Source: a bacterium (lineage in GTDB: Bacteria > Patescibacteriota > Patescibacteriia > 2-01-FULL-39-33). Taken from it: a DNA stretch of 60,494 nt. Positions 50,774 to 52,279 of the stretch are shown here, piece by piece. Numbering within the stretch: the first letter of the stretch is position 1; the number at the start of each line of letters is the position of its first letter. The notes under the pieces were generated by a model that searched no databases, had not been told where the DNA came from, and saw nothing but the letters and a program-made list of their open reading frames with translations. A program made the position numbers and the translations under genes. The stretch lies in NCBI GenBank assembly GCA_029558735.1, contig JAKQDP010000038.1, forward strand, positions 1 through 60,494. The letters are read 5' to 3'.

Positions 50774-51036
50774 TTGATCAATAGAAGAAAATTATTAAGA
50801 GACAGAGCTCTATCATATAAAGGCGGGAAATGCGAGCTTTGTGGATACGATAAATGTCAACAGGCATTAGAATTTCATCACCTAGAATTAACCAGGAAAG
50901 ACTTCGGTATTTCGGCAAAGGGATTTGCCAGATCCTGGAAAAAATCATAAAGGAATTGGATAAATGCATATTGGTTTGCGCCAACTGCCATCGGGAAATC
51001 CACAGTAAAGCCCAAACAATAAAAAAAGAGGCCTAA
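50774..51036 (+). pseudogene. HNH endonuclease with a single frameshift
   Basis: GGKCELCGYDKC..ALEFHH..KDFGIS..RSWKK continues as IIKELDKCILVCANCHREIH after a shift at the A6 run 50939-50944. Confidence 0.85.
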
Positions 51037-51050
51037 ACCTCTTTTTTTAT
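51019..51050. terminator. Bidirectional terminator after the duplicated tRNA 3' end
   Basis: ATAAAAAAAGAGG..CCTCTTTTTTTAT. Confidence 0.75.
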
Positions 51051-51053
51051 CTA

Positions 51054-51204
51054 GCTCCGCGAACTGGATATTTATCCTTCACCGCTCCGACGGTGAAGGT
51101 CGCCTTCCAGTCAAGACGGCTTCCGCCGTCTTGCCTTCAGGCCGGCCCTCGCGGTCCGTCTCGTCAAATTACTCGCCGGACATCGCTCCGGGCTTCGAAT
51201 CCAG
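51054..51204 (-). repeat. Duplicate of the tRNA-Asn T-arm/acceptor 3' end, interrupted by a 125-nt hairpin-rich insert
   Basis: 16-bp direct repeat GCTCCGCGAACTGGAT at 51054-51069 and 51276-51291; TTCGAATCCAG at 51194-51204. Confidence 0.85.
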
Positions 51205-51239
51205 ACGCAAGCCAAGCAGTTGGCTTGCTTTCGCTTTTC

Positions 51240-51275
51240 AAATAAAAAATACGCCAAAAGGCGTATTTTTTATTT
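51240..51275 (-). terminator. tRNA terminator
   Basis: AAATAAAAAATACGCC-AAAA-GGCGTATTTTTTATTT perfect hairpin abutting the tRNA 3' end. Confidence 0.85.
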
Positions 51276-51276
51276 G

Positions 51277-51616
51277 CTCCGCGAACTGGATTCGAACCAG
51301 TAACCTACCGGTTACACTTGTCTTTAATTTTCATTAAAGTGTGGACTATATCATTACCATAACCCCTGCTTCCCGAAAAAATCGAGAATGACAGATGCCT
51401 TAGGTATCGGGCGCTTCGCCCCGATCCCGAGTACTCGGGATCGGGACTACTCCCATATGGGATAGTCTCTGCACGTTTCTCCGCCGAGGCGGAGACTTCG
51501 CTCAGGATCACCATTTTAAAGGCTTCCCTGAATTCACCCGATTTACATTCCGAGGTTTCCCCCGAAAGCTGCGTATTTGTTCACAGCCGGTTGCTCTACC
51601 ATTGAGCTATCGCGGA
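51277..51616 (-). tRNA. trnN: tRNA-Asn(GTT), intron-split (exons 51616-51583 and 51314-51277)
   Basis: Joined exons TCCGCGA TA GCTC AATGGTA GAGC A ACCGG CTGT^TAA CCGGT AGGTT ACTGG TTCGAAT CCAGT TCGCGGA G form a fully paired 72-nt cloverleaf; CCA not encoded. Confidence 0.95.
51315..51582 (-). ncRNA. Group I self-splicing intron (268 nt) within the anticodon
   Basis: 5' exon ends in U and intron ends in G; P1 GCTGT/GCAGC with U.G pair; P AATTCAGGGAA, Q ATCCTGAGC, R GCAGAGACT, S GATATAGTCC; P3 ATCGGGTG/CGCCCGAT; P9 CTTTAAT-GAAA-ATTAAAG. Confidence 0.93.
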
Positions 51617-51644
51617 ATATTGTTGAGTTGTGAAAAAGAACGTT

Positions 51645-51787
51645 GCCGGTTGCTCTTCCTGGGCAGCGCTGAATGCTCCCAGAGGTTGCATCCATCGTCG
51701 TCTCGCCTGCTCCGCCTATCGGCGGATTGGCTCACTCCTGCCCGTTGGTCGCTATCGCTACCAACCCATTGAGCTATCGCGGAATAT
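51645..51787 (-). repeat. Duplicate of the tRNA-Asn 5' half, interrupted in the D-loop by a 109-nt structured insert
   Basis: CCATTGAGCTATCGCGGAATAT at 51599-51620 and 51766-51787; GCCGGTTGCTCT at 51586-51597 and 51645-51656. Confidence 0.88.
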
Positions 51788-51825
51788 ATTTTTTACAAGG
51801 ACCTAAAAATAATAACACCCTAAAC

Positions 51826-51854
51826 ATTTTAGCAAATTTTAGAGACAAAGTCAA
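51826..51854 (-). promoter_or_regulatory. Promoter of the tRNA locus
   Basis: Minus strand TTGACT-17 bp-TAAAAT with an extended -10 TG. Confidence 0.7.
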
Positions 51855-51863
51855 CAAGTGTCC

Positions 51864-51891
51864 GTAACTCGCAACTCGTAACTCGCAACTC
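51864..51891 (+). repeat. Heptamer tandem array (GYAACTC)x4
   Basis: GTAACTC GCAACTC GTAACTC GCAACTC. Confidence 0.9.
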
Positions 51892-51904
51892 GAAAAAACA
51901 AAAA

Positions 51905-52279
51905 TTATTCCATTATATCTGCCGTTGCCCTGATGAGTCCGTTCAATATTTGCATCACCTGTTTAGCTCTTTGGCCCATGTTTTTATAATCATCAAAAGT
52001 AATAAATCCCAGATCTCTGGATAAAATCAAAAAATTCTGCACCTCGGCGGCCGACCCTCTCGATTGATAATAAAACTTTATTTTATCCTTGAAATGATAA
52101 CGCTCGAAACCCTCCGCGATATTGGCCGTAATTGAACTCGCCGCTCTTCTTAATTGACTTACCAGACCAAAAATCTCGGTTTGGAGAAATTGCTCCGTAA
52201 TTTTATAAACATCCAAAACCAACTGATGGGCGACCTACCAAGCATCCAATTCATAAAAATTTTGAATCTTGCCGTCCAT
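51905..52279 (-). pseudogene. Four-helix-bundle protein (23S rRNA IVP / TIGR02436-like) with in-frame TAG at codon 15
   Basis: MDGKIQNFYELDAW*VAHQLVLDVYKIT..E.FGLVSQLRRAASSITANIAEG..SRGS..E; TAG at 52237-52235. Confidence 0.85.

Follow-up and report, generated by a model that had tools for sequence, protein, structure and literature searches.

The interrupted tRNA-Asn locus

The window analysed was the whole 60,494-nt stretch (positions 1 to 60,494) of contig JAKQDP010000038.1 (assembly GCA_029558735.1), from a bacterium of the lineage Patescibacteriota, Patescibacteriia, 2-01-FULL-39-33, whose 0.99-Mb genome is referred to as G000. On the minus strand of the window, a truncated copy of the 5′ half of a tRNA-Asn gene (51787–51645) preceded the true gene and carried a 109-nt insert in its D loop. 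This insert is one copy of a multi-copy, tightly folded, non-coding repeat family, here named E1. An initial annotation, made from the letters of the window alone, had described the truncated copy as a transcribed pseudo-half with a structured insert; the finding is real and more general than that annotation held. The congener is referred to as G001, and other relatives are given similar codes.

The outer repeat of the pseudo-half, A (51787–51766), was an exact 22-nt direct repeat of 51620–51599 in a repeat search (family D2). It was composed of four leader bases and nt 1–18 of tRNA-Asn (the acceptor 5′ strand, the D-stem 5′ strand, and the D loop to its GG, the last two bases). The extent given in the initial annotation was retained, except that 51787 is the start of the repeated leader and the tRNA copy itself starts at 51783. 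The inner remnant, B (AGAGCAACCGGC, 51656–51645; family D3), repeated tRNA-Asn nt 21–32, comprising the D-stem 3′ strand, nt 26, and the anticodon-stem 5′ strand; the repeat tool reported a 15-nt pair at this place (51645–51659 and 51586–51600, 93%). Between A and B, the 109 nt of E1 (51765–51657) occupied the D-loop spot that holds one T in the true gene, as had been annotated. The 143 nt of 51645–51787 were predicted to fold with −57.7 kcal/mol, compared with −44.95 ± 3.99 kcal/mol in 200 shuffles (z −3.2, one shuffle as good). The minimum free energy (MFE) fold contained the three helices read by the initial annotation (GTTGGT/ACCAAC, GGGCAG/CTGCCC, and CCGCC-GATA-GGCGG), and in it the D stem closed around the insert. 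A fourth helix, a 10-bp hairpin at 51697–51667, was the most conserved part of E1. A 24-nt spacer (51644–51621), without counterpart in G001 by sequence comparison, followed the pseudo-half.

The true gene (51616–51277) was tRNA-Asn(GUU) with a 268-nt group I intron. The 5′ exon (51616–51583) ended in CUGU, the intron (51582–51315) lay between anticodon nt 35 and 36, and the 3′ exon (51314–51277) extended to the discriminator G. The intron matched RF00028 with 95.7 bits (E 1.9e-23; gathering score 50), and the Rfam alignment placed the U·G pair of the intron P1 after CUGU; the intron has a terminal G at 51315. When the exons were joined, the anticodon loop read CUGUUAA and the spliced RNA folded as a perfect cloverleaf. 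The intron-less orthologues in G013, G010, and G011 read CTGTTAA and were called Asn(gtt) by ARAGORN; in G000, the program found tRNA-Thr(tgt) as a gene apart and no further Asn gene. By default, ARAGORN reported no tRNA in the window; with introns allowed, it kept the intron length of 268 nt, shifted it by 2 nt, and called the gene Thr(tgt). Because of the P1 U·G pair, the CUGUUAA loop, the orthologues, and the separate tRNA-Thr(tgt), this call was taken as a 2-nt misplacement. The program listed 27 G000 tRNAs with the -i option and 47 without it, which is an effect of the tool and not of biology. The tRNA-Asn intron was present in G000, G001, G014, G016, and G017, and absent in G010, G011, G013, G015, and G041. 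As a separate observation, ARAGORN found no tRNA-Trp in G000, a genome rated 99% complete; that gene may be interrupted like tRNA-Asn, or unassembled.

Downstream of the gene, a terminator-like hairpin with a T-run (51274–51239) was read by eye; with too few G-C pairs in its stem, it was passed over by the scan. It belonged to a 53-nt repeat (family D1), in which 51069–51017 was 74% identical to 51291–51239. The outer 3′ copy (51069–51017) contained tRNA nt 59–73 (ATCCAGTTCGCGGAGC) and a second terminator-like hairpin. A second structured element, E2 (51241–51070), was inserted in the T loop of this 3′ pseudo-copy and was composed of a 9-bp hairpin, an inner T-stem arm (CTGGATTCGAA, 51204–51194), and an insert of about 124 nt; its own covariance model, R2, matched 51241–51137 with 114.5 bits. 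Since a 3′-end duplication is found at the same locus, the 5′ duplication is not an isolated oddity.

Upstream of the pseudo-half, a sigma-70-like site at 51854–51826 (TTGACT-17-TAAAAT with TG, 10 of 12 matches) was the best match of a promoter scan; the scan found 3 sites against 3.0 in shuffled sequences. By itself the match therefore carries little weight, but a corresponding arrangement in four other genomes supports it. Upstream of the leaderless tRNA-Asn of G001, the hexamers and their spacing were identical. A promoter-like site also preceded the pseudo-half in G010, G011, and G013, where the order of promoter, pseudo-half with insert, and tRNA-Asn recurred, and none was detected between the pseudo-half and the tRNA in these three genomes or in G000. 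This arrangement suggests that the pseudo-half and tRNA-Asn are probably co-transcribed, with E1 carried as a leader in the tRNA precursor, in agreement with what the initial annotation had proposed from the only good promoter-like site. RNase P RNA was present in G000 (158 bits). Two exact tandem units of a 14-nt sequence (CGTAACTCGCAACT, plus strand; family D4) occupied 51863–51890, immediately before the promoter-like site.

The E1 repeat family

E1 was about 72–110 nt long. It was composed of an optional hairpin 0, a closing stem P1 of 6–7 bp, a purine-rich junction, a variable hairpin A, and a conserved 10-bp hairpin B, which in the window copy were located at 51765–51744, 51743–51738 with 51666–51661 (P1), approximately 51731–51704, and 51697–51667, respectively. 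When 26 copies were aligned by MAFFT, RNAalifold found 18 pairs, of which 13 had compensatory changes, and the alignment contained 17 G·U cells versus 2 A·C cells on the tRNA sense strand. A covariance model, R1, was built from aligned copies and matched the window copy at 51748–51655 with 80.5 bits (E 5.6e-19). Among 80 model-aligned matches (68 distinct rows), 97.3% of cells were paired and 17 of the 18 pairs changed on both sides. The covariation score was 0.493, compared with 0.181 for shuffled and at most 0.088 for slid partners; this alignment was fitted to R1, which favours structure, and the independent MAFFT/RNAalifold result agreed. On this comparative evidence, the structure of E1 is under selection. 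Conserved single-stranded stretches and loops (GACC..GGGA and AAGCGAG) were located next to the covarying stems.

The initial annotation had proposed an Rfam search and a search with a de novo covariance model. The former returned no family for the insert, and the latter, with R1, revealed that the insert belongs to a multi-copy family. In Rfam 15, RF00028 was the sole match of the window; at E values up to 10 over 50900–51950, none of 20 matches overlapped 51645–51787, and six more E1 or E2 loci gave only tRNA and weak tRNA-overlapping matches. No resemblance to hammerhead, twister, hepatitis delta virus, or K-turn motifs was found in a comparison by eye with their consensus features. No description of E1 or E2 was found in Rfam 15 or in searches of the openly accessible literature.

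A BLAST query with 901 nt of the locus matched 29 of 41 relatives, in which the insert alone matched many places per genome, and a 146-nt query matched 23 of the 34 genomes of the family. With R1, nine copies were found in G000, eight strong copies in G001, and 9, 19, 26, 11, and 12 copies in G013, G007, G020, G008, and G015, respectively. Matches were present in 37 of the 151 genomes of a class sample and in 3 of the 151 genomes of a phylum sample, G000 included. Exact core matches occurred in records titled as Parcubacteria, Paceibacterota, Patescibacteria group, Kerfeldbacteria, and Moraniibacteriota metagenome-assembled genomes (MAGs); three core-match records, from two MAGs, were labelled Gammaproteobacteria. 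An exact pattern search of a viral contig collection gave no core match.

E1 and partial copies of tRNA genes

All nine E1 copies of G000 had a tRNA gene within 300 nt. Copies preceded Asn, Asp, Gly-gcc, and Lys-ttt, others followed Gln-ctg, Gln-ttg, Leu-caa, and Leu-gag, and one lay beside Cys on the opposite strand. From 70 loci of the genomes compared, 69 distinct copies were classed by the ARAGORN tRNA genes within 350 nt. Twenty-one were upstream and co-oriented (28–70 nt before the tRNA), 26 were downstream and co-oriented (mostly 24–66 nt after it), and one was on the opposite strand. The other 21 had no such tRNA, and one of these was the window copy, whose tRNA is hidden by its intron. 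E1 was found beside at least 19 tRNA isoacceptor species. The view of the insert as a leader specific to the tRNA-Asn locus was therefore given up, because E1 is multi-copy and occurs on both sides of many tRNA genes and away from them.

In each of the 21 upstream loci, the sequence before E1 was a copy of the leader and of the tRNA 5′ part, with recurrent breakpoints. The tRNA copy ended with the D-loop GG (nt 18/19) in 15 loci and with the variable-loop GG (nt 46/47/51) in 6 loci. The 5′-end duplication, which the initial annotation had considered unusual, thus has counterparts at these upstream loci in addition to the 3′-end duplication beside it. In downstream loci, a copy of the 3′ part of the tRNA came after E1; it started mostly 16–22 nt before the 3′ end, in the T loop, and often continued across the trailer and terminator, reaching as far as 85 nt beyond the tRNA end. 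At Gln-ctg of G000, E1 was flanked by a repeat of 86 nt as read, or 79 identical nt by local alignment. The flanking direct repeats were long and variable (18–60 nt upstream, up to 102 nt downstream) and asymmetric around E1. One reading, in which the outer 5′ and outer 3′ halves are parts of one disrupted ancestral gene, was suggested by G013, which has both; since most loci show one side only, it was discarded as a general account.

tRNA-linked copies interrupted the D loop or the variable loop behind its GG, or the T loop behind nt 58. At each, a long outer arm was kept identical to the adjoining intact tRNA and its leader or trailer, and a short inner arm closed a helix around E1. The inner arm was the natural D-stem strand in D-loop copies and a non-tRNA complement in variable-loop copies. 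In T-loop copies, it was 7 nt long and the reverse complement of the first 7 nt of the outer copy, including loop nt 58–60. From 29 T-loop rows, 8 without CGAAC and 2 without a copy of at least 12 nt were left out; among the 19 parsed, the inner arm matched in 7 of 7 positions at 5 loci and in 6 of 7 at 5 loci, and its identity to the tRNA's own 5′ T strand was at most 5 of 7. Several loci were left unparsed in the alignment of the downstream arms. Two G000 loci were more complex. On contig C29 (15300–16150, minus strand), tRNA-Gln(ttg) was followed by 2–3 tandem units, in each of which a terminator, an inner arm, and an E1-like element preceded a copy of the tRNA 3′ end. On contig C6 (locus L013, 1400–1470), a pseudo-tRNA-Asp upstream of the true tRNA-Asp contained E1 after the variable-loop GG and, in addition, an 18-nt insert in the D loop.

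When G000 was compared with G001, turnover of E1 was evident. In the congener, the promoter and the intron-bearing tRNA-Asn were the same but the pseudo-half was missing, i.e., the site was empty; the extra DNA of G000 was 167 nt, comprising the element, B, the spacer, and the second A. The leader is therefore dispensable for tRNA-Asn and its intron. Of the eight strong G001 copies, two (Gly-gcc upstream and Leu-caa downstream) were at sites with E1 in G000, with flanks aligning at about 72%, and six faced E1-free sequence. Copies that were 96–97% identical occurred within and between G007, G020, and G008, whereas those of G000 were older, the best pair, Asn and Asp, being 78% identical. The pseudo-tRNA-Gly equalled the tRNA of its own genome in both G000 and G001, despite anticodon-stem differences between the two tRNAs; the pseudo-copies also have a common non-tRNA tail (GCAGACCT...), which shows one origin. 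The outer arms and the gene therefore undergo concerted evolution.

Some copies occurred in other contexts. Short E1 copies were nested in another G/C-rich repeat, E3, in G007, G008, and G020. In G020, an E3+E1 composite was located in frame in a 402-aa glycosyltransferase open reading frame (ORF), where it supplied about 40 codons of an interdomain linker (L041, contig C7, 944–2152, minus strand). In G008, two E1 copies lay head to head and formed a large palindrome (L096, contig C27, 1501–1590 on the plus and 1624–1695 on the minus strand). E3 itself was a two-hairpin repeat (CCCTCTCC..GGAGGGGG..GGGGGAGGTC), which was also inserted twice, without E1, in loops of the G001 group I intron (L047, contig C23, approximately 470–420 and 350–300, minus strand).

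E2 had one copy in G000 and matched 49 of the 151 class genomes. It was located downstream of tRNA genes for Ser (6 loci), Leu (3 loci), Asn, Pro, and His. In several copies, the 5′ stretch of E2 matched the acceptor 5′ strand of the neighbouring tRNA, so both acceptor strands were present. As judged by eye, E2 could then fold into a tRNA-like RNA without the D and anticodon arms, in which an acceptor stem is combined with a single long hairpin and an interrupted T arm.

With E1 in the transcript, the intact TCCGCGA strand of the pseudo-half was suggested by the initial annotation to compete with the 5′ exon for the 3′ acceptor strand. In the equilibrium ensemble calculated for the spliced precursor, the 3′ acceptor strand paired with the true 5′ strand with a probability of 0.64–0.75 and with the pseudo strand with a probability of 0.21–0.25. 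The competition is physically conceivable, and a regulatory folding switch is thermodynamically possible, but no evidence for such a switch was obtained. Among the sequencing runs that hold the locus sequence, none was recorded as RNA. Two putative RNA runs of one study (X18 and X20), which may contain DNA, gave unspliced contigs covering 51443–51665 and 51147–51351, and no joint without the element was seen in run contigs. The contig stop at 51655–51665 was rejected as a transcript end, since DNA contigs stop at the same place; it is an assembly break at the repeat, and the two runs were not counted as evidence on splicing or expression either.

Origin and significance of E1

We favour, with a probability of roughly 0.55, the reading that E1 is a mobile, structure-constrained, and probably selfish element, which resides in partial tRNA-gene duplications that restore the gene and is carried in tRNA precursors. 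This reading is drawn from the multi-copy and patchy distribution, the turnover, the nearly identical paralogues, the varied contexts, the site specificity, the selected structure, the concerted evolution, and the presence of RNase P RNA. Within one class of Patescibacteria, E1 would thus act as a mobile insertion module with site specificity. Where the target is an essential tRNA gene present in a single copy, an insertion would survive only with a tandem partial duplication that restores the gene. The duplication may be the Campbell-type product of a small circle, containing E1 and a fragment of the target, or a template-switch product, and gene conversion would then hold the outer arm identical to the gene. 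At tRNA-Asn, E1 would be passive in a 5′ leader transcribed from the promoter at 51854–51826 and would be removed by the RNase P cut at 51616.

Several observations weigh against mobility. In protein family searches and hand tallies, no transposase, integrase, or reverse transcriptase tracked E1. RVT_1 was present in 67 of the 151 class genomes (18 of 37 E1-positive versus 49 of 114 E1-negative), and G066, G040, G094, and G165, with 4–9 E1 copies each, had no RVT_1 match; the co-occurrence with reverse transcriptase expected of a SINE-like (short interspersed nuclear element) or retroplasmid-like repeat was therefore not seen. Y1_Tnp was present in 91 of the 151 (25 of 37 versus 66 of 114) and in 2 of 5 high-copy genomes, and the complete genomes G013 (9 copies) and G066 (5 copies) had no Y1 match. 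No canonical terminal inverted repeats and no short target duplications were seen. Compared with a miniature inverted-repeat transposable element (MITE), a helix does enclose E1, but one of its strands is target tRNA sequence (the D stem, or the 7-nt reverse complement); no target-site duplication of short, fixed length was found, nor a cognate transposase of the MITE or REP kind. Remnant B is tRNA-specific and therefore cannot be transferred between tRNA species, which leaves the duplication step to be accounted for. The 47 co-oriented copies next to a tRNA were all on the tRNA strand (one more was opposite), which also fits a function at the transcript level. Furthermore, the orthologous G000 and G001 copies kept every helix by compensatory changes, several of them in P1 and hairpin B, with an identical loop. 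Such upkeep appears to exceed what is expected of a dead passenger, unless paralogues convert one another.

The TnpB domain was found in none of the 5 high-copy genomes. Two G000 loci encode proteins of these kinds: a 305-aa reverse-transcriptase ORF, the sole one of the genome, beside a helix-turn-helix ORF (contig C25, 140–1416, minus strand), and a 157-aa Y1 transposase ORF, which a distance of about 2.5 kb separates from a group of clustered tRNAs and E1 copies (contig C55, 10282–10641, minus strand).

The upkeep of structure would also be expected if E1 were a host-functional, cis-acting domain of tRNA precursors that tunes folding, processing by RNase P or at the 3′ end, splicing, or stability. 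This generalises the idea of the initial annotation, in that a tRNA half identical to the cognate tRNA would pair with, or compete for, the complementary half. The co-orientation and tight spacing to the tRNA, the promoter upstream of the pseudo-half in four genomes, the G·U excess on the sense strand, the identity of the outer arm to the tRNA, and the predicted 21–25% share of the pseudo strand in acceptor pairing are all consistent with such a role. We regard it as the main rival of the mobile reading but nevertheless as rather unlikely. E1 was dispensable at the tRNA-Asn of G001 and was not found in 114 of the 151 class genomes, its copy number ranged from 0 to 26, and the tRNAs that bear it differed between genomes. 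Copies were located in an ORF, in other repeats, and away from tRNAs (21 of 69), and downstream copies were mostly 3′ of the terminator. In addition, the identity extended to leader bases that cannot pair, a sign of gene conversion rather than of selection for pairing.

The downstream copies, taken by themselves, resemble the attR side of an integration site, since the displaced tRNA 3′ end and trailer are repeated after the insert, both at Gln-ctg and at tRNA-Asn (51069–51017 and 51291–51239). The partial tRNA copies could then be att-site scars of reduced, integrase-mobilised elements, either cis-mobilisable remnants or the result of tandem accretion, with E1 as their conserved end. The tandem units after tRNA-Gln(ttg) and three Phage_integrase (tyrosine recombinase) matches in G000 fit this reading, but the latter were on other contigs (C23, C35, and C33), and no integrase gene was in or beside the DNA bounded by the repeats at the E1 copies read, where only 150–250 nt without an ORF separated the repeats. 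E1 is located within the loop of the repeated arm, with arm sequence on both sides, and not beside an intact core site; tRNA-targeting integrases are not known to leave upstream D-loop or variable-loop insertions with 5′ duplications. Considering also that an exact search for the core pattern gave no match in the viral collection, we judge this origin improbable.

We likewise give little credence to E1 as a small RNA gene of its own, for which the tRNA-like flanks would serve as signals for processing; RNase P or RNase Z would free the RNA from tRNA precursors, and it would act in trans. The conserved single-stranded stretches beside covarying stems and the location of E1 in leaders and trailers of tRNA transcripts would suit such an RNA, and E2, with both acceptor strands, could fold in a tRNA-like manner. 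However, the flanks of E1 have no partner acceptor strand and therefore offer no stand-alone substrate for RNase P or RNase Z, and the distribution is patchy, with some copies in ORFs. Lastly, tandem tRNA duplicates and their decay are common, but a decaying tRNA-Asn duplicate with a chance insert of no wider meaning can practically be dismissed in view of about 80 homologous inserts with the same fold, recurrent breakpoints in 21 of 21 upstream loci, and a fold z of −3.2.

Among known systems, the Rickettsia palindromic elements (RPE) are non-coding repeats of about 100 nt with stable folds and many copies, located in frame in protein genes and also in RNA genes. They have no known transposase. 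E1 is similar in size, stability, and lack of coding capacity, in its in-frame ORF copy, and in that no transposase was found. It differs in that 48 of 69 copies were tied to tRNAs, at defined loop positions and with a partial duplication that restores the gene. The REP and BIME repeats (repetitive extragenic palindromic sequences and bacterial interspersed mosaic elements) with their RAYT (Y1) transposases, and the palindromes derived from IS200/IS605, are likewise hairpin-based repeats with structure conserved on one strand, and Y1 transposase genes are common in the class of E1 (91 of 151). Unlike them, E1 has a three-way junction, no conserved 5′ tetranucleotide was seen, and the complete genomes G013 and G066 were without a Y1 match. 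With integrative elements that target tRNA genes and duplicate their 3′ part (attL/attR), and with the cis-mobilisable remnants of such elements, E1 has in common the order of intact tRNA, insert, and displaced tRNA 3′ end copy, and the tandem arrays; it differs in the absence of an integrase, in the location of the insert inside the T loop of the repeated arm, and in that 5′ duplications, at the D or variable loop, make up half of the tRNA-linked copies.

Insertion near tRNA genes is known from eukaryotes. Retrotransposons of compact eukaryotic genomes, such as Dictyostelium TRE5/TRE3 and yeast Ty3, occupy fixed short distances upstream or downstream of tRNA genes as safe sites in gene-dense genomes (PMC5006619, PMC6101501). 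These are protein-coding retroelements guided by Pol III factors. E1, in contrast, is tiny, bacterial, located inside copied tRNA sequence, and without a link to reverse transcriptase (18 of 37 versus 49 of 114). Archaeal tRNA genes contain non-canonical introns, including introns in the D and T loops, and some tRNAs are split, with the halves encoded apart. E1 loci differ in that an intact tRNA stands beside each truncated, interrupted copy, in a bacterium with a group I intron, and a bulge-helix-bulge motif is neither needed nor seen.

A broader and more tentative reading, which we consider unlikely at present, takes E1 and E2 together, either as a new kind of protein-less, structure-guided insertion module or as precursor-borne RNA domains domesticated for tRNA maturation in minimal genomes. 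As a module, they would recognise exposed tRNA loops (GG|U of the D or variable loop, or nt 58/59 of the T loop) by short arm pairing with the target flank. Integration mediated by RNA or single-stranded DNA would then duplicate the target outward to the transcript end and rebuild the essential tRNA at each event.

In practice, E1 and the pseudo-halves confuse tRNA finders, as seen from the zero count by default and the Thr miscall with introns, and they break assemblies at tRNA loci, where both DNA contigs and those of putative RNA runs terminate at the repeat. In Patescibacteria, the genome measures about 1 Mb and the tRNA genes are single-copy, but as many as 26 E1 copies, in addition to E2, are packed against these genes. 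If E1 is mobile, it would show how essential RNA genes can serve a selfish element as landing sites while the host survives, and it would point to a mechanism of insertion with duplication for which no enzyme is encoded. If it is functional, it would represent a widespread, unannotated RNA domain of tRNA precursors.

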